Of a stretch of DNA of 64,000 bases, positions 3,001 to 61,034 are shown one piece after another. A program made the position numbers and the translations under genes. Origin of the DNA: a virus (Duplodnaviria > Heunggongvirae > Uroviricota > Caudoviricetes); the IMG/VR virus record IMGVR_UViG_2740892439_000009. One strand, 5' to 3'. The number at the start of each line of letters is the position of its first letter. Within the stretch, counting starts at the first letter, position 1. The notes under the pieces were generated by a model. It worked only from the letters and a program-made list of their open reading frames with translations, did no database searches and was not told where the DNA came from.

Positions 3001-5424
3001 AATCCGAACACTACAACGTCTATCGAGACCAGCCAGGGTGCGAAAGGTAACAACAGTGATGGCCGTGCGCAGTTCACGCTGACCACTTCATGGTCCCGCT
3101 ATTGGGTTAAGTGGAAACAGACACCTACCACGAGTACCAAGCGCCTGATTCTGTGTCGTATCGAGAGCAATACCTCCAAAGACCAGACGGTGTACATCAA
3201 CAGTCCGAAGTTTGAGGTAGGTAACGTTGTTTCCGACTGGAACGAGTCTCCGTCTGATAGTGCCAGTGCGTCGGCTGTGGACTCGCTGACAACGAAAGTG
3301 AATCAGCAGGGCACTTCCATTAGCTCTATCGGAAATCGCACCACATCGTTGGAAAACGGGTTATCGACAGCTCAAAACAATATTGCCAAGAAGGCTGATG
3401 CTTCTGCATTGCAGGATCTCCGGAACACGGTGACATCTCAGGGTGATGATTTAACTGCGGCGAACAGCAGCATTACCAGCCTGCATGCCTCGATGAACCG
3501 TCGCACTGTGTTTACTGTCACTGCACGGGGTAATGGCAACAGCGTTACCCATGGGGTGTTTGATGAAAGCGGCAAGAATCTGTTTACCCCTGGTCGCAGC
3601 TGGGCGCTGGTCACTTTTGCAAAACACAGCGACGGATCAACGGTGATTGCGACCTCCAAAACATACGATGTCTTTGGCAGCGCGAATAATGGCGCCACGA
3701 TGTCGGCTGATATCGAGGCACTGGCCAGTGGGACTTACGTTTGCGTCCTGACATTCGATGAGCCAACTGGCAACCGAGGTAAGGTGTTGTCTGCCCTGGA
3801 ATCTCTTGGTGGCACTTCCGAAGTCGTTAACTCTCTGCCGTATCGTGGCGCCTACATTCTCCTTGGCCGCAAAGGTATGAAGCCGGGCGATGGTCTGGAA
3901 CTGCGTGCGCCAACCGGTGGCGACGGCACCGCCCACATTTCGACCTCAGTCGAGTTTGTGAACGGGGTAATGATGGGGCTGGGCGCCGCTGGTGGTGTGA
4001 TGATGAAGGCTGATGCGAACGCATCTGCAATTACCACGCTCCAGAATACAGTGAAGACCCAAGGGGATAATATTGACTCCCTGAGCTCCTCGACAACAGC
4101 GCTGGAAAACAGCCTTGCGTCCAGTAACGTCAGCGTGGATGCAGCAAGCCAGATCCCCGGTAACCTGATCGTAAACCCGTCTTTTGAGCGTGGTACGGAG
4201 GGCTACACTGGTTGGAGCGGTATTGCCACGGTGGCAACGCTGCAGGTTCCACATCTTGGCACCAAAGCCGCCAAACTAGCGGCGGGTGGTTCTGCAGGCG
4301 TGGGCCAGAAGATCTCCTTCAAAAAGGATCGGTCGTACAAAATTGGTATTTGGGCAAAGCAGGACCCTAATACCACCATTCAGTCGACCGACAACACAAA
4401 ATTCCGTGTGGCTGACGGTACTGGCCTGATTGCAAGTAAGGTTTATGGTCCGTTCACCTCGAACTGGCAGGAGGTGTCATGGACATGGAAGGCGACAAAG
4501 GATGTCCTTGCTGACGTTCAGTTCACTGCTTTCTTGTCAGCCGGCGCGATGTACTTTGATGATTTTTACGTCGTCGATGTGACCGACTCAGTTGAAACTC
4601 AGGCGAACTCGAGTGCGATCACGAAGCTCGATAGTCGTGTGACCAAGACAGAGAATGACATCACCAGCCAGGGCAGCCAGGTTACGCAACTTAAGAATGA
4701 CCTTGCTACCACAAACACAAATGTTTCGAAGAAAGCGGATGCAGCTGCGTTAACGGCATTAACGAACCGCGTCACGCAGAATGAGAAAGAAATTGGAACC
4801 CAGAGCAGCCAGACAACTTCGCTCAAAAACTCTTTGAGCACTGTTCAGGCAATGGGAAGCAACCCGTGGTTTGATGGTTCTCTGGAGACGTACTCCGAAA
4901 ACCAGCAGATCAGCGGCTCGCGCGCGGTCGTCGTCAGCTCTCAGAAACGAAGCGGAACGAAGTCGTTGCGTGTTTCCCGCGGCGCCGGTGAGGGCGGAAA
5001 CAGCGATAAAACCATCGGTAAGTGGATTGCTCTGCGTGAAAATGCGGTATTCCGCATTGAACTCTGGGCGATGATGCCGGCAGATCAGTCGCCATCATCC
5101 GGGTGGTCAACGCTCGTTGGTTTGCAGACCCAAAACGCTGCCAACAACAATAACTGGCCGACGGCAATCACTATCAATGAAGCCGCATTGGGTGCAAGAG
5201 GCGCATGGAAGAAATTCACCGGTACGCTCCGTGTAGCCGCTGGCCACACTCGCGGCGCATTTTGGGTATCTACCGCGGCACAACTGGCACTGGTACACCG
5301 GGGTATGATCTGTATATCGATGACGTTGTTGTCACCGATATCACCGACGCAAAAGAGGCTCAAGATTCGGCTAATTCGAACGCATCCGCGCTCACCAGCC
5401 TTACCTCACGTGTTACCAATGTAG
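1..5424 (+). CDS. Lateral (L-shaped) tail fibre protein, LtfA-like; 5'-partial upstream segment, frame lost near 5270
   Basis: Frame open from base 1. About 8 diverged tandem modules, each with a coiled-coil stretch (QQGDxITSQGNSITKLTNDL..KKADQSAL) followed by a beta-rich domain ending in (F/Y)xDDxxVxDVTD. The last ~50 codons of this frame look like nonsense. Confidence 0.75.
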   Translation, partial: AGSYVIAHYKAFVKVNADTTITMAPGSRVFDDTGAVYVNGVRVAFGNASWNTVSFDLKAGWSTVEFLVNQWTGQAYINLGFKLSEKVAQLNSALGMNALSNAISAVTSNVSTVGDRVTSTSQSVTDLRNSLEQTNANLANKADAQALSTLQNTVSKQGDTISSQGNSITNLNNTLTAARNAGDNLIPNYDFLQGATAWDIQYPAGVAFGNFGDGKAGVKLNRTTTTSPGIFSNNNKPLPLNGQRKYRVVVKAKGVSGAMNMLIRRQNKIGQTDSNYEDKNVTLTSEWQTITWETGLTASNADGQNFKLYAHPANAEIWVDTFKVFDITDEVKIKANSDALSTLSSTVTQQGDKITSQGNSITKLTNDLEVADANIAKKADQSAVTTLTGRVEKTESGLTAANSNITSLSSSLNQQSKRGANLLPDGTFESYAVGHNLSNNRVIVTTDDSHGGSKCIRVTRPNDYNANATDNSDNHIFSGFQVRDNAVFYMECWVKLDAKSTAMAENAQISIGLSLQYQDNSWQWPAVTKAAKDLSTAQWTKVSGYLKSTKSGIKQAMVRISIPNVSSVKAGNSFLIDDLVITEVTDAYNAQSTADANANAISTLDSTVSQQGDQITSQGNSITKLTNDLATTNNNVSKKADQSALSVLSGRVDQTESGLSSANSSITALNSSVRAGNATSGDLISNPTFDPEFSQMGFTVVSSSSEGVPANCPYAYVARIAARDHHPNFAAIPATLGDVYEMSALVACGTGSADFNLYLGTATRPSGSVGAPLSSGGNRKASATWQRVTWRFKITQGIVDRGFFRPFLQINQSSPFGTVWYVTDWHLRNVTDSSKVQDSLDATAKAVDSLTSTVNQQGENISSIGTRTTNLENNLRTTNANVAQKADANALTALTNRVTQTEKDINSTSSSVTNLNNKVDAISVGGTNLIKNSGDMTGWSNVTSDTYRGNAVIGATVKAGSGYKDLREITLESPVDAGEYVYSFYAKGGVAGQIMTAFFYNPNTTTSIETSQGAKGNNSDGRAQFTLTTSWSRYWVKWKQTPTTSTKRLILCRIESNTSKDQTVYINSPKFEVGNVVSDWNESPSDSASASAVDSLTTKVNQQGTSISSIGNRTTSLENGLSTAQNNIAKKADASALQDLRNTVTSQGDDLTAANSSITSLHASMNRRTVFTVTARGNGNSVTHGVFDESGKNLFTPGRSWALVTFAKHSDGSTVIATSKTYDVFGSANNGATMSADIEALASGTYVCVLTFDEPTGNRGKVLSALESLGGTSEVVNSLPYRGAYILLGRKGMKPGDGLELRAPTGGDGTAHISTSVEFVNGVMMGLGAAGGVMMKADANASAITTLQNTVKTQGDNIDSLSSSTTALENSLASSNVSVDAASQIPGNLIVNPSFERGTEGYTGWSGIATVATLQVPHLGTKAAKLAAGGSAGVGQKISFKKDRSYKIGIWAKQDPNTTIQSTDNTKFRVADGTGLIASKVYGPFTSNWQEVSWTWKATKDVLADVQFTAFLSAGAMYFDDFYVVDVTDSVETQANSSAITKLDSRVTKTENDITSQGSQVTQLKNDLATTNTNVSKKADAAALTALTNRVTQNEKEIGTQSSQTTSLKNSLSTVQAMGSNPWFDGSLETYSENQQISGSRAVVVSSQKRSGTKSLRVSRGAGEGGNSDKTIGKWIALRENAVFRIELWAMMPADQSPSSGWSTLVGLQTQNAANNNNWPTAITINEAALGARGAWKKFTGTLRVAAGHTRGAFWVSTAAQLALVHRGMICISMTLLSPISPTQKRLKIRLIRTHPRSPALPHVLPM

Positions 5425-11147: not shown

Positions 11148-11816
11148 ATGACCAAGATCTTTGTGGTTGGCGGCACAAAGGGCGGGCCTGGCAAATCCAC
11201 CGTTGCCCAGCAAATTGCCGTTTGCCTGAAAGTCAAAAAGAAGAAGAAGGTTTATATCACCGATATAGATATTCAGCGCACGACAACGAGCTGGTGTGAA
11301 GACCGTCGACAGAACGAAGACCTTGAGCTGATTCCTTTTGCATACGTTCAGGATGACATCATTAAGCACCTAAAATCGCTTCAGGGTAGAGCTGAGTTTG
11401 TAGTGGTAGATGCTGGTGGCTTCGACTCCGAAATTCAGCGACAAGCGATGCTGATGGCTGACGTTATCATTATCCCGCTGCGTCCTAAGCGTCGTGATTT
11501 GAAATCTTTACGTGACATCGATCCTATTATCGACAATGTTCGCAATGTAAACGATAAAGTGAAGGTCCGCGCGGTCATGAACCAGTGCCCGGCTTTGCCA
11601 TCACAAGTGTCTCGCATTCTGGCGGCTAAAGAGATTGTCGAGACGTTTGGCATCGAGTCTGCGCCAGTCAATCTATATAACCGCAACGTCTACGATGATG
11701 CGGAAGAGTCTGGTCGTTCTATCTTCGAAATGACCGGTAGCGAGCGCGACAAAAAGGCGGAAGCCGAGTTTGAAGAATTTGTAGATTATCTGTTGAGTCT
11801 GGAGGAAGAAGAATAA
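11148..11816 (+). CDS. parA: ParA-family partition ATPase (small, type Ib)
   Basis: Deviant Walker A GGTKGGPGKST; size about 220 aa; followed by a small RHH-like gene. Confidence 0.8.
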   Translation: MTKIFVVGGTKGGPGKSTVAQQIAVCLKVKKKKKVYITDIDIQRTTTSWCEDRRQNEDLELIPFAYVQDDIIKHLKSLQGRAEFVVVDAGGFDSEIQRQAMLMADVIIIPLRPKRRDLKSLRDIDPIIDNVRNVNDKVKVRAVMNQCPALPSQVSRILAAKEIVETFGIESAPVNLYNRNVYDDAEESGRSIFEMTGSERDKKAEAEFEEFVDYLLSLEEEE

Positions 11817-12175
11817 TGTCCATGAAAATGGGTGACCTAGCAAAGCGCAAAGAGCCTGATGCACCGGCTAAGAACACAACTCCTTTGCGCCAACCAGTCA
11901 GACCACAAGGACGCCCGACTCGTGGCAAAGAGAAAATTAAAAGCCGCACCATGTCACTGGAAGACGAATACTTCGAGCTTCTGGAAATGATGAAGTTTAT
12001 CCCTCGTTTCGAGAAGTTCACCCGCTCTGATGTGATTCGTGCTGCTATTTTCCATCTGGCAGAGAAGTCGCCGCAGGAAATCGAGGATATCGTGAAACTT
12101 AACGAGGCGATCACTGCTGCCGACGTCACGATGCGTACCGATGAAATCAAACGCGAGTTGATGAAGAAAGGTTAA
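11816..12175 (+). CDS. ParG-like ribbon-helix-helix centromere-binding protein (candidate)
   Basis: Basic disordered N-terminus and C-terminal RHH-like segment; start overlaps the parA stop; terminator hairpin GAGGTGC..GCACCTC downstream. Confidence 0.5.
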   Translation: MSMKMGDLAKRKEPDAPAKNTTPLRQPVRPQGRPTRGKEKIKSRTMSLEDEYFELLEMMKFIPRFEKFTRSDVIRAAIFHLAEKSPQEIEDIVKLNEAITAADVTMRTDEIKRELMKKG

Positions 12176-42872: not shown

Positions 42873-43204
42873 AGGCCATCCCATTCGCGCTGTTGTTCCT
42901 TTCTTCGATCGTTGTGGCCGACACCACTGTTTATCAGTGTGAAATGTCTGTAGCCGACGTTAAGAATGGCGCTCTTACCGACGTCATAAAAGCACCATAT
43001 GGAGCGATGGTCGTAGACAGCGGCGACCAGTTCTATGTTGTGCGTGACGATCGAGTATTGTCATCCCCATATCTCACAAACCGTAATGGCAAATTAACCG
43101 GCGTCGGAGAAGACCACTTCGTATACAATAAATACAAGGGCTTCTATGGCGTTCACGCTTCTCAGCAAAGCTACCTTTTCGATGACTGCAAGGAGGTTGG
43201 ATAA
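42869..43204 (+). CDS. Secreted/periplasmic protein, hypothetical
   Basis: N-terminal signal peptide MKAIPFALLFLSSIVVA. Confidence 0.5.
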   Translation: MKAIPFALLFLSSIVVADTTVYQCEMSVADVKNGALTDVIKAPYGAMVVDSGDQFYVVRDDRVLSSPYLTNRNGKLTGVGEDHFVYNKYKGFYGVHASQQSYLFDDCKEVG

Positions 43205-43461
43205 TGGCATTAACACTGGCAGGTCTGGAAATCGAGAAAACAAGCGGCTACTGGCGTGCTAAGGGTTTCAAGCAGCCTGGCATTCTTGAGCGTCTGGAAC
43301 GTGAAGATGGGTATATCGTCCACCAGCGGCGTGAATGGCGTATGTACGATCCAGAAACAGGAAACTGACTACAAAAGCCGGAACACTTTGGGGTCTGTTA
43401 AAGAAAATACACTAAATGCAAACTGACTGCGGCACGTTCCGCAGTCATATTTCATAGTCGT

Positions 43462-43996
43462 CACCGCTGACAGCATACACAATCAACTACCGCTGATAGC
43501 ATATCGAGAGTCTATCTCACCGCTCACAGCATACTTTACTCGATTTTTTACCGCTGACAGCATACTTAAGACATTGCATGAATAATGTGTACCGGTATGG
43601 GTATAACCAGAACAAAATTACCGCTGGCAGCATACGAAGGTCTGACATATGCCATTAATTACCGCTGATAGCATATCCAAACAAAAATTCCTCAATAAAA
43701 CACCGCTGACAGCATACATTCTATCAGAGAGTAGCAGGCAATAAATGCCTTTCACTACAAGCAATCAGCGCAATAGCAATAGAATGTTAGTGAGCGCAAA
43801 CCTATATGGAATGCACTCTTCGAGGTTAGTAACCACTGGGGAGGTATGACAGAGCATTGAGTGGTGATAGATGATTTACCGCTCACAGCATACGTTCATC
43901 TCACTATACCGCTGGTAGCATATCTTTAACCGTTCACAGCATACTTTTCAGAAAAATAGCCGCTGATAGCATACATTTCACCGCTGACAGCATATC
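43462..43996. repeat. Iteron array downstream of repA (incA-like): about 12 copies of ACCGCTGACAGCATAC
   Basis: Direct repeats with variants (CTGATAGCATAT, CTCACAGCATAC, CTGGCAGCATAC) at irregular 20-45 bp spacing, interrupted by a 150-bp repeat-free gap. Confidence 0.85.
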
Positions 43997-45089
43997 AAAG
44001 CAGTTTGAGACTATTGGAAAGGATCTCAATCATCTTGATATTTTCAGGCGTCAAATTCTGCGAAAGTTCAGTTATCTTGTTGATAATGTTCTGTTTGGCA
44101 TCAATTTCCCCGGCTTTCTCATCTGGTTTTTTGGGTTCGATGTCTTCAGGTTTTGGCGGTGCGACTTTGAGTTTTGGATTGCGGCTGTGAATCTGGATAT
44201 AGATCGACCGCCCACGCTTAATCTCGCTGTATTCGAGATAGCCCAAATCTTGGAGAGCTTTTAAGCCGTTACGTATAGTCTGATTCTGCGAGCTGACATT
44301 CCTGCTACTCAAATTGAGTCGCGCACGCAATCGAGCAAGCGATACCGGCGCAGGCTTGGTTGGAAGACTTTCGATGAAGGTGTACAGAGCCTGTGCTGTT
44401 TCTTTGCGTGGTAGCTTATTGATAACCTTTAACTGCAAAAGAACCTTATGGTCAAAGCGATATAGTTCGGCCAGCTTCGGTTCTGCATAGAACACCACCG
44501 TATCTTTCTGCTCGTTGTAGTCCACGCTATTGATGAGGTGCACCATCAGAAGCGAGATCTTGTTAGAGCCGTCGACGTTCTTTTCTTCATACGTTCTCTG
44601 GAAAGACAGAGTTGTACGCATGATCTTCAAAAGACTGTTTGTAAGCCGGTCGCGGAGTGTTTTGCGGATCTGTGACGATGGATAGCCACAAAACTTCGCA
44701 AATTTCGTGATGCTTAACTCGACACGACCATTAGGTTCGCCGTATTCTGCCAGCGAACGCACAACGCCCACCCACGTTTTGAAATCATGATCCATGTCCA
44801 GGCGAGGACCGGTTATCTTGATATCGGAATAGCCTTCAGAACGGGCTACTTCGAGCTGGACAAGCTCCTTTGAAGCATCGATCTCATTTGGCTTGTTACG
44901 TTTACTGTATTTTGTTCCCTTAAGCGTGGGGACGAACAACCCCAGTCGCATCAACGCAATTGGTTGGACTGTATTGTTGCTATTAGGGACAAGTTCCCCT
45001 GTGTACAATTCAAGGGAACCTTCTTCAAAGTTGTCGATGTTATCTTCTACTTCTTTGTTATTTTTACCTTTTTTATTTTTTGTGGACAT
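43995..45089 (-). CDS. repA: Iteron-binding replication initiator RepA (P1/RepFIB family)
   Basis: NSNNTVQPIALMRLGLFVP, GYSDIKITGPRLDMDHDFKTW and IHSRNPKLK match the P1 RepA pattern as recalled; flanked by iterons on both sides. Start placed at the internal ATG because the longer ORF would run across the origin iterons. Confidence 0.85.
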   Translation of the reverse strand: MSTKNKKGKNNKEVEDNIDNFEEGSLELYTGELVPNSNNTVQPIALMRLGLFVPTLKGTKYSKRNKPNEIDASKELVQLEVARSEGYSDIKITGPRLDMDHDFKTWVGVVRSLAEYGEPNGRVELSITKFAKFCGYPSSQIRKTLRDRLTNSLLKIMRTTLSFQRTYEEKNVDGSNKISLLMVHLINSVDYNEQKDTVVFYAEPKLAELYRFDHKVLLQLKVINKLPRKETAQALYTFIESLPTKPAPVSLARLRARLNLSSRNVSSQNQTIRNGLKALQDLGYLEYSEIKRGRSIYIQIHSRNPKLKVAPPKPEDIEPKKPDEKAGEIDAKQNIINKITELSQNLTPENIKMIEILSNSLKLL

Positions 45090-45109
45090 GTGGACACCTT
45101 TGTCATTCA

Positions 45110-45211
45110 ACCGCTGACAGCATACTTGATTTGCCGCTGACAGAATACCAAAAACAGTTGGCAGCATACGGTGAACCGCTGACAGACTATCAATTACCGC
45201 TGACAGCATAC
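45110..45211. repeat. Origin iterons upstream of repA (incC-like): 4-5 copies of ACCGCTGACAGCATAC
   Basis: Same 16-bp repeat family as the downstream array. Confidence 0.8.
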
Positions 45212-45249
45212 ATGAACATGGCTTCAGACCAGTCGTGGCGCGGCTTACA

Positions 45250-45325
45250 GCGATCGGGGATCTTATTTGATCTATACAAGGATCTATCTATGGATCTCTT
45301 TATTAGGATCTATCCTGTGGATATG
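45250..45325. other. Origin-associated region: six GATC sites within about 60 bp plus a DnaA-box-like TGTGGATAT
   Basis: GATC at about 45252, 45259, 45269, 45281, 45293 and 45307; layout resembles the P1 oriR arrangement. Confidence 0.6.
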
Positions 45326-45410
45326 TGAATAATTAAAACAGGCATTTACTACCTTCGGCGCACCTGGTGGGTTATCGTTGCCTCGGCTAACAATCACAGA
45401 AAAATGACAT

Positions 45411-46055
45411 ATGGATCTAAAACGCACGCGCTGGGTTCGTCGTCTTGAAGACGGCTCCTACACTATCGAATCAAATTCCAACCTGAATAAGCAGAAGTTG
45501 CTTTGTGACATCTGCGGTATAGCGGCGAAGTGCCCGATCTACGAAACCAGAATTAAACTTGATAAGGCTGGTGTGAATTTTCATTTAAACAGTTGCATCA
45601 GGTACGTTCCATTACTCGCATTTCGTAAACCGATCATCGGATTGGATGCTCCCTACTTCAACACACTCCGTTCAGGTGTGACGTGGCGAGATCGTTTATC
45701 ACCAGACAAGCTGATTTGCCTTGTATCCGCAGACACAGGGAAAATCATCCGTTTTGGGAAAGTAGACAAGGTTTACTCAGGTCCAGTAGACGAAATGTTA
45801 CGGAAACACAGCCGGTTTAATCATCTCTGTATGGGTGGTGAGAAAATCGAAAAGGTGGAAGAAGTGATCCGCAAATCCTACGGACACTTCCTGACCAAAG
45901 ATAGCCTGCTCACCGCAATCTACATCAGACATGTAAAACGTGAGTTCGACCTCGAATACCACAGTGAAGAAGAGCTTAACCTTGTTGACCCACGTCCAAA
46001 AGCTGGCGTCATAAGCATAAACGCAGCGCGTAAAAAGCCCACTGACGCGCTGTAA
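45411..46055 (+). CDS. Hypothetical protein
   Basis: 214-aa ORF next to the origin. Confidence 0.5.
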   Translation: MDLKRTRWVRRLEDGSYTIESNSNLNKQKLLCDICGIAAKCPIYETRIKLDKAGVNFHLNSCIRYVPLLAFRKPIIGLDAPYFNTLRSGVTWRDRLSPDKLICLVSADTGKIIRFGKVDKVYSGPVDEMLRKHSRFNHLCMGGEKIEKVEEVIRKSYGHFLTKDSLLTAIYIRHVKREFDLEYHSEEELNLVDPRPKAGVISINAARKKPTDAL

Positions 46056-60440: not shown

Positions 60441-61034
60441 ATGATTGCAGCCGAAAAAATCAAACAGCGAAAGCGCGACAACTCTCTTCGTGACCTCTGG
60501 AGAACACCTGATTGGCTGTTTTCTGCCATTCAACGTTATCTTGGAGTGACATTTGATGTTGACGTTGCCTGCAACAAGGACAATGCAAAGCTGCCTAATT
60601 TCATAGGCGTTGAGCGCGATGCTTTGAAATCTGAATGGGGACAGCCAGGTACAATTGCCTTCCTCAATCCACCCTACTCCAAAATCTCCCCCTGGATTGA
60701 TGCTGCTATACGTGAGCAGGCTCGCGGAGTTACAACAGTGATGCTAATTCCTCAATCCCTCGATACAAAGTGGTATGAGCGTGCAACAGAGTATGCGAAT
60801 GAGACGATTATTCTGTCTGGTGGCCGCGTAGCGTTTGTCGAGCCTGACGTCAATTTGGGTCAGGTAGAAGTAAACATCAACCCCGGTGGCAGTATGCTCG
60901 TTGTTTTTCGAGGGTTTTGTCAGGACGCTGGGCACTCTATAAGCAAGATCCCTTTGGACGTCATGAAAAGTCTGGGAGGGTATGACCCTGCGAATGTGAT
61001 CAGGAAAAAAAGACCATCAAAGAAGGCTGCTTAG
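60441..61034 (+). CDS. DNA N6-adenine methyltransferase, phage Dam family
   Basis: WRTPDWLF and NPPYS motifs. Confidence 0.7.
   Translation: MIAAEKIKQRKRDNSLRDLWRTPDWLFSAIQRYLGVTFDVDVACNKDNAKLPNFIGVERDALKSEWGQPGTIAFLNPPYSKISPWIDAAIREQARGVTTVMLIPQSLDTKWYERATEYANETIILSGGRVAFVEPDVNLGQVEVNINPGGSMLVVFRGFCQDAGHSISKIPLDVMKSLGGYDPANVIRKKRPSKKAA

Follow-up and report, generated by a model that had tools for sequence, protein, structure and literature searches.

A probable orthologue of the P1 plasmid replicon in an SSU5-supergroup phage-plasmid

By what replicon is a tailed phage maintained when it persists as a plasmid, and how closely does that replicon follow the logic of phage P1? The question is raised by a stretch of 64,000 nucleotides (hereafter, the window) from the IMG/VR virus record IMGVR_UViG_2740892439_000009, assigned to Caudoviricetes. 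A first-pass annotation, made from the letters alone, had noticed here a minus-strand gene for a RepA-like initiator between two arrays of short repeats (iterons), next to a cluster of GATC sites and a DnaA-box-like sequence. We conclude that the region 43463-45332 is very probably the prophage-plasmid replicon of a phage-plasmid of the SSU5 supergroup (pSLy3-type), orthologous to the P1 oriR/incC-repA-incA replicon and to the RepFIB basic replicon. This assignment is carried by the observed homology of RepA and of the origin-core DNA, the arrangement of the iterons and the occurrence of the replicon exclusively on plasmids. Its parts, in window coordinates, are as follows.

43463-43717, minus strand: distal block of the incA-like control array downstream of repA; 7 iterons, GTATGCTGTCAGCGGT in the repA sense, spaced 26-70 bp
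43718-43877, unstranded: 160-bp spacer that divides the downstream array and holds a dyad-like element of about 60 nt
43878-43995, minus strand: proximal block of the incA-like array; 5 iterons, 21-30 bp apart
43995-45089, minus strand: repA, 364 amino acids (aa), by homology an iteron-binding initiator of the P1 RepA/RepFIB family (Rep_3 WH1-WH2 superfamily)
45095-45099, minus strand: Shine-Dalgarno sequence AGGTG, 5 nt upstream of the repA ATG (45089)
45110-45211, minus strand: origin (incC-like) iterons; 5 copies, spaced 23/21/21/21 bp
45229-45244, minus strand: GC-rich spacer, GCCGCGCCACGACTGG in the repA sense, with 15 of 16 bases as in the P1 oriR spacer GCCGCGCCACGTCTGG
45252-45310, unstranded: six GATC (Dam) sites, starting at 45252, 45259, 45269, 45281, 45293 and 45307
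45316-45332, minus strand: two abutting DnaA-box-like 9-mers with one shared base, aligned to the annotated tandem DnaA site of P1 (62891-62908)

The initiator, the iterons and the origin core

The first-pass assignment to the P1/RepFIB type is borne out by the homologs of RepA, which do not belong to unrelated families. In BLASTP, RepA is 46% identical to P1 RepA over 278 aa (E 3e-86) and 52% identical over 317 aa to the RepA of an IncFIB-typed conjugative plasmid of E. coli (E 2e-110), and a tblastn search yields matches in P1, P7 and RepFIB-annotated genes. Identity amounts to 48% with the RepA of SSU5 and to 85-87% with the RepA of the pKPHS1-type elements of Klebsiella; altogether, relatives are encoded in more than 5000 plasmid records. 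The protein matches PHROG 775 (5e-133) and, among the Pfam domains, Rep3_N (WH1), with 37.5 bits (3.9e-9) where the cutoff is 22.4. The NCBIfam scan of RepA assigned no family, and the search of PDB sequences gave no match.

The open reading frame (ORF) delimited mechanically coincides with the RefSeq call of 404 aa, which starts at 45209, within the first origin iteron; its first 40 codons (45090-45209) are translated origin iterons. The evidence supports the ATG at 45089 as the start of repA and an over-extended RefSeq call, because this ATG is preceded by AGGTG, is used in the annotation of the phage PhiR41_1 and is conserved in relatives. The resulting protein of 364 aa begins with MSTKNKK; the MSTK N-terminus recurs in Klebsiella pPMK1-B, Salmonella pAnCo3 likewise has the start sequence ATGTCCACAAAA, and in a Cronobacter plasmid the position equivalent to 45089 is occupied by an ATG. 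Overlapping the Shine-Dalgarno sequence and the ATG is GTGTCCACA, which resembles a DnaA box with 2 mismatches and is replaced at the same place in the Klebsiella and Salmonella relatives by GTATCCACA, with 1 mismatch; it is only a candidate for a DnaA box near the repA start.

The repeats that surround repA far exceed chance expectation. Allowing up to 3 mismatches, the window contains 18 copies of the 16-mer ACCGCTGACAGCATAC, against 0.39 expected, a count that none of 100 shuffles reaches. All but one of these copies (17 of 18) are located within 43463-45211, on the plus strand without exception. With repA on the minus strand, 12 are downstream of the gene and 5 upstream, exact figures for what had been estimated at about 12 and 4-5, respectively. 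Within the proximal downstream block, the first iteron overlaps the stop codon of repA. Of the five origin iterons, the middle copy (45154-45169) is degenerate, ACAGTTGGCAGCATAC, with 3 mismatches; its counterparts in the relatives from Klebsiella, Salmonella and Cronobacter are degenerate in the same manner, and in P1, too, the middle incC iteron ranks among the most divergent copies, which suggests a conserved weak site.

Upstream of the origin iterons lies the origin core. The six GATC sites that had been reported within about 60 bp span 59 bp by measurement, five of them in heptamers of the AGATCC type spaced 10-14 bp and one in CGATCG. Elsewhere in the window, no 60 bp contain more than 2 such sites; when the 282 GATC sites of the window are placed at random, at least 6 fall within 60 bp in 2 of 2000 trials, and the total of 282, against 260 expected, shows no depletion of GATC. 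The cluster is the presumed region of unwinding and SeqA sequestration. Of the DnaA-box-like sequences, the first-pass annotation had pointed out TGTGGATAT (45316-45324; minus-strand ATATCCACA), which is indeed present, but had missed the second, abutting box, TGTGAATAA (45324-45332; minus-strand TTATTCACA); each differs from TTATCCACA by 1 mismatch. The boxes are closer to the consensus in several relatives, including Klebsiella pPMK1-B, and the GC-rich spacer is kept in the Klebsiella, Salmonella and Cronobacter relatives. The core as a whole is found upstream of repA in all relatives examined, that is, in pPMK1-B, pAnCo3, the Cronobacter plasmid, SSU5 and the IncFIB plasmids of E. coli and Klebsiella.

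The GenBank annotation of P1, which served as the reference, comprises a tandem DnaA site, five Dam sites, five incC iterons with the promoter PrepA inside, repA and nine incA iterons. The layout of the window matches this annotation, as claimed earlier on: the order of the elements in both cases is DnaA boxes, GATC heptamers, GC spacer, five iterons, repA and the downstream array. The five origin iterons are spaced 21/21/21/22 bp in P1 and 23/21/21/21 bp here, incA iteron 9 abuts the repA stop codon of P1 much as the first downstream iteron overlaps that stop codon here, and both elements are phages kept as plasmids. The similarity is not confined to the layout. In the origin core, 92 of the 124 aligned columns are identical to P1 oriR (74%), compared to 58% identity in the homologous part of repA and 47% in the iteron block. 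The DnaA boxes with the first heptamer read TTATTCACA-TATCCACAGGATAGATCC here vs TTATCCACATTATCCACTGGATAGATCC in P1, and the proximal GATC sites with the GC spacer read GATCCCCGATCGCTGTAAGCCGCGCCACGACTGG vs GATCCCTGATCGTTGCAGGCCGCGCCACGTCTGG. The GATC sites align with the five annotated Dam sites of P1, at intervals of 7/10/12/12/14 bp here vs 7/10/11/23 bp in P1, where the interval of 23 bp holds a heptamer decayed to GGTC.

The two replicons also differ in many respects. The iteron is GATGTGTGCTGGAGGG in P1 vs GTATGCTGTCAGCGGT here, and a different incompatibility is predicted from this difference. P1 has five GATC sites rather than six, and a longer leader, which includes TATCCACA, between the last iteron and repA, whereas only 20 nt separate the two here. 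The RepA of P1 consists of 286 aa and that of the window of 364 aa, with an additional Lys-rich N-terminus of about 30 aa and a C-terminus of about 55 aa that is in part common to the IncFIB RepA. With respect to taxonomy, P1 is a Punavirus in its record, whereas the IncFIB members of the SSU5 supercommunity are predicted Siphoviridae (PMC7969092).

Several further results weigh against orthology with the P1 replicon. P1 has 9 downstream iterons, 3 direct and 6 inverted, in contrast to the 12 here, all direct; the array of the window is divided by the 160-bp spacer; and parAB-parS adjoins incA in P1 (parA of 1197 bp, about 398 aa), whereas no par operon adjoins the array here. Pfam Rep3_C (WH2) is not detected in RepA at E values up to 0.01; the domain is borderline or sub-threshold also in the RepA proteins of P1, SSU5 and IncFIB (18.4-21.0 bits vs 21.1). 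DnaA boxes with 1 mismatch occur at chance level across the window (16 found vs 15.4 expected), so that the support for the two boxes comes from their position and conservation, not from counts. Finally, the standard promoter scan predicts no promoter on the minus strand, and the relaxed scan gives a weak candidate for the repA promoter within the origin iterons, TTGATA-19 nt-TATGCT at -104; the same relaxed scan recovers the annotated PrepA of P1, at -102. Of the mechanism proposed below, the promoter is the weakest element.

Distribution, mechanism and rival explanations

Judged by near-identity and synteny with catalogued members and by phage structural genes on a circular plasmid of about 110 kb, the element is a phage-plasmid of the SSU5 supergroup (pSLy3-type). 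In the 2-kb replicon region, identity is 99.5% with plasmid p09EL50 from E. coli O104:H4, 99.2% with PhiR41_1, which is an isolated phage, and 99.0% with pAnCo1 and pAnCo2 (NZ_KY515224/5). Together with the tail proteins encoded by both the window and p09EL50, the match to PhiR41_1 agrees with the earlier description of the DNA as a phage genome. That this phage is maintained as a plasmid, which had also been proposed, is evident from its distribution: at identity of at least 95%, the replicon is present in 120 of 5426 complete E. coli genomes (about 2%), in 185 places, none of them chromosomal, and 122 plasmid records match the 2-kb region at that level. For replication and nucleotide metabolism, p09EL50 has a large set of genes, among them dnaE, nrdAB and those for a DnaB-like helicase, a ligase, RNase H, thymidylate synthase and a Dam-family methylase; this plasmid is typed with one replicon cluster only (rep_cluster_488).

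The replicon is already known, as part of a catalogued family and of a known group of phage-plasmids. Of the 193 phage-plasmids that were typed, 130 are IncFIB, chiefly members of the SSU5 supercommunity (PMC7969092); the replication genes of SSU5 (IncFIB) are included in typing tools, and pAnCo1 and pAnCo2 have been assigned to the pSLy3 subgroup (bioRxiv 10.1101/2025.09.12.675607). p09EL50 has been described as an IncF plasmid (PMC3486847), and its RepA recurs unchanged in pECOH89 (PMC3999498). In the literature searched, we found no published account of the oriR-like fine structure for the pSLy3 subgroup; this structure follows directly from family membership. The replicon explains the plasmid persistence of a widespread group of E. 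coli and Shigella phage-plasmids, some members of which carry blaCTX-M-15. The practical use is modest: the RefSeq repA call is corrected, and the parts of the origin are defined for vectors, curing and measurement of copy number.

The mechanism of P1 plasmid replication was established by the Chattoraj, Abeles and Austin laboratories. Extrapolating from P1, that is, from its GenBank annotation and from this body of work, the replicon would operate as follows. RepA monomers would bind the five origin iterons and host DnaA the tandem boxes, and jointly they would open the adjacent region of GATC heptamers for the loading of a DnaB-type helicase. RepA bound to the origin iterons would repress its own promoter, and the 12 downstream iterons would keep the copy number low, both by titrating RepA and by pairing with the origin iterons (handcuffing). 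Initiation would be licensed once Dam has methylated the six GATC sites, and SeqA on the hemimethylated origin would block immediate re-initiation. For partition the element has a small ParA module, about 32 kb from the replicon, and lytic replication presumably relies on the DnaE, DnaB-like helicase and accessory genes that the element itself encodes. Low copy number, dependence on Dam and SeqA, and autonomous replication are predictions from homology; the exclusive location on plasmids in 120 genomes supports them indirectly.

Three other explanations have to be weighed against the P1-like prophage replicon. The replicon might behave as RepFIB does in conjugative plasmids, with Dam/SeqA control dispensable and the downstream array serving for titration only. 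This is unlikely, even though RepA is nearer to the IncFIB RepA than to that of P1 (52% vs 46%) and shares with the former part of a C-terminal tail that P1 RepA does not have, and even though all downstream iterons are direct, compared to the 3 direct and 6 inverted ones of P1. Compared with P1, the GC spacer and the GATC heptamers with their spacing are better conserved than repA, and the same GATC cluster is present in IncFIB origins, so that the distinction between RepFIB-like and P1-like is one of degree within a single family.

Less probable still is the possibility that RepA and the origin also, or mainly, drive the lytic (vegetative) replication of the phage, beyond prophage maintenance. 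No separate lytic origin was identified in this analysis, and the initiator could recruit the DnaE, DnaB-like helicase, ligase and RNase H that the element encodes. However, in P1, the closest characterised relative, oriR and RepA serve plasmid maintenance only, according to the annotation and established knowledge; a negative control array of 12 iterons would make no sense for runaway lytic replication; and the same type of replicon maintains thousands of non-phage IncFIB plasmids. As for the notion that the region has decayed to a non-functional remnant and another replicon maintains the plasmid, we give it almost no credence: apart from the weak promoter prediction, nothing speaks for it directly, whereas repA is intact, the architecture is kept across Escherichia, Klebsiella, Salmonella and Cronobacter, no other replicon is typed in p09EL50, and 120 plasmid-borne copies are found at identity of at least 95%.

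Variation among relatives and in the downstream array

Outside the phage-plasmids, the closest RepA (52%) is that of the RepFIB/IncFIB replicons of F-type conjugative plasmids, for example, pEC-81009 and IncFIB plasmids of Klebsiella. These replicons have the DnaA boxes and the GATC cluster in an origin core of 64-66% identity, as well as repeats that flank repA, but differ in the sequences of the iterons, in a long leader between the origin and repA, and in residing on conjugative plasmids instead of phages. Much more similar is the pKPHS1 type (IncFIB(pKPHS1), or 'IncpKPHS1') of the SSU5-like phage-plasmids of Klebsiella, such as pPMK1-B and pKPHS1, with RepA identity of 85-87%, the same iteron consensus, a five-iteron origin and a core of 78% identity; PLSDB types this Klebsiella replicon as IncFIB. 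The iterons downstream of repA have been noted previously in this Klebsiella group (PMC6735626). The differences comprise 9 downstream iterons, a 71-bp spacer that lacks the dyad element, DnaA boxes of closer match and the host genus.

The SSU5_pHCM2 group (SSU5, pHCM2 and pLF82) belongs to the same supergroup of phage-plasmids and has syntenic neighbours, RepA identity of 48%, a core of 71% identity and the dyad element. Unlike the window, however, SSU5 has the iteron AACCACTGTAGAGAGT, its distal iterons and dyad are inverted, and the origin core with its iteron set is doubled upstream of repA (SSU5 2260-2500 and 2640-2900), the repA-proximal copy being degenerate. In that copy, most of the GATC sites are lost, AGATCC having become AGAACC or AGACCC.

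The iteron of the window is common to the Klebsiella pKPHS1 group, Salmonella pAnCo3 and the Cronobacter plasmid, but differs from those of P1 and SSU5/pHCM2. Across these comparisons, the replicon family keeps its origin core and changes the specificity of the initiator for the iterons. A shared iteron sequence predicts shared incompatibility specificity, and accordingly the pSLy3-type, Klebsiella pKPHS1-type, pAnCo3 and some Cronobacter elements probably form one incompatibility group, with SSU5/pHCM2 and P1 in others.

Variation is found also among elements that are more than 98% identical, in the number of downstream iterons: 13 in p4_0.2, 12 in the window and in p09EL50, and 9 in PhiR41_1. 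The state of PhiR41_1 corresponds to a deletion of 87 bp between the identical iterons at 43463 and 43550, by which the three copies in 43463-43534 are gone (PhiR41_1 position 5063), and p4_0.2 contains one additional unit of 26 bp (p4_0.2 positions 364-390). By analogy with P1 incA, such changes in iteron number could shift the copy number.

The dyad-like element in the spacer of the array (43781-43845) contains the invariant blocks GTTAGTG...CAAAC...N19...GAGGTTAGT...CACTGGG. Its core is kept in Salmonella pAnCo3, Cronobacter pCsaC105731a and SSU5, in the last of these in inverted orientation, together with most of the distal iterons; it is missing from pPMK1-B of the Klebsiella group. Several identities for the element were considered and rejected. 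Membership in a family of phage operators is disfavoured by the absence of further close copies of the two arm motifs in the window, where one arm has no other copy at up to 3 mismatches and the other only partial matches at chance level. An RNA hairpin is unsupported, with 13 predicted pairs, no compensatory change and weak energy. Matches by eye of the spacer to a cer/dif-like (Xer) site or an IHF site are poor. A search of the spacer for inverted repeats at seed 6 found none, and an Rfam scan of 43000-46000 (E up to 1) gave no match to any known antisense or regulatory RNA.

The dyad persists in lineages that differ in iteron specificity, and in SSU5 it is inverted along with the distal iterons. 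On a broader reading, which we regard as improbable, the array would be more than an incA of the P1 style. The dyad could then be a binding site for a regulator, of the host or of the phage, by which copy number would be coupled to the lysis-lysogeny state, and, separately, recombination between identical iterons could act as a natural, reversible dial of copy number for cargo, such as resistance genes. The dyad and the polymorphism in iteron number are the only parts of the replicon that might repay experiment.

Partition, methylation and neighbouring genes

The genes elsewhere in the window that bear on the replicon, and the one next to it, are listed below.

11148-11816, plus strand: small Walker-type ParA partition ATPase of 222 aa, about 32 kb from the replicon; Pfam MipZ, AAA_31, CbiA and ParA, and PHROG 164, 'ParA-like partition protein' (4.2e-51)
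11816-12175, plus strand: partner of ParA, 119 aa, presumed centromere-binding protein; PHROG 5111 (function unknown)
45411-46055, plus strand: ORF of 214 aa; PHROG 2105 (function unknown), no Pfam match
60441-61034, plus strand: Dam-family N6-adenine methyltransferase; Pfam PF05869 Dam (2.2e-38), annotated in p09EL50 as 'phage N-6-adenine-methyltransferase'

The first-pass annotation had posited a module of ParA and a ribbon-helix-helix (RHH) protein. The ParA half stands on the Pfam and PHROG 164 matches, and the 222-aa protein is the only ParA found; the RHH fold of its partner is unconfirmed, with no Pfam match, a best E value of 0.85 among PDB sequences (non-significant) and no Foldseek match. 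The single-sequence AlphaFold2 model of the partner, of moderate confidence (pLDDT 67), starts with a basic, disordered N-terminus, followed by helices at 48-59, 70-82 and 86-118; two short helices and a long one in a model of this kind are compatible with an RHH fold but prove nothing. The phage-encoded Dam-family enzyme could methylate the GATC cluster of the origin independently of the host Dam.

The genes beyond the downstream array encode small hypothetical proteins. At 43424-43447 there is a strong, bidirectional, terminator-like hairpin of 9 pairs (TGACTGCGG...CCGCAGTCA), which sits between the convergent plus-strand genes and the end of the iteron array, at the outer boundary of the replicon. 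On the opposite side, the 214-aa ORF diverges from just past the DnaA boxes; its product could be an accessory of the replicon. An ORF of equal length occupies the same position in SSU5 and in the Klebsiella, Salmonella and Cronobacter relatives.

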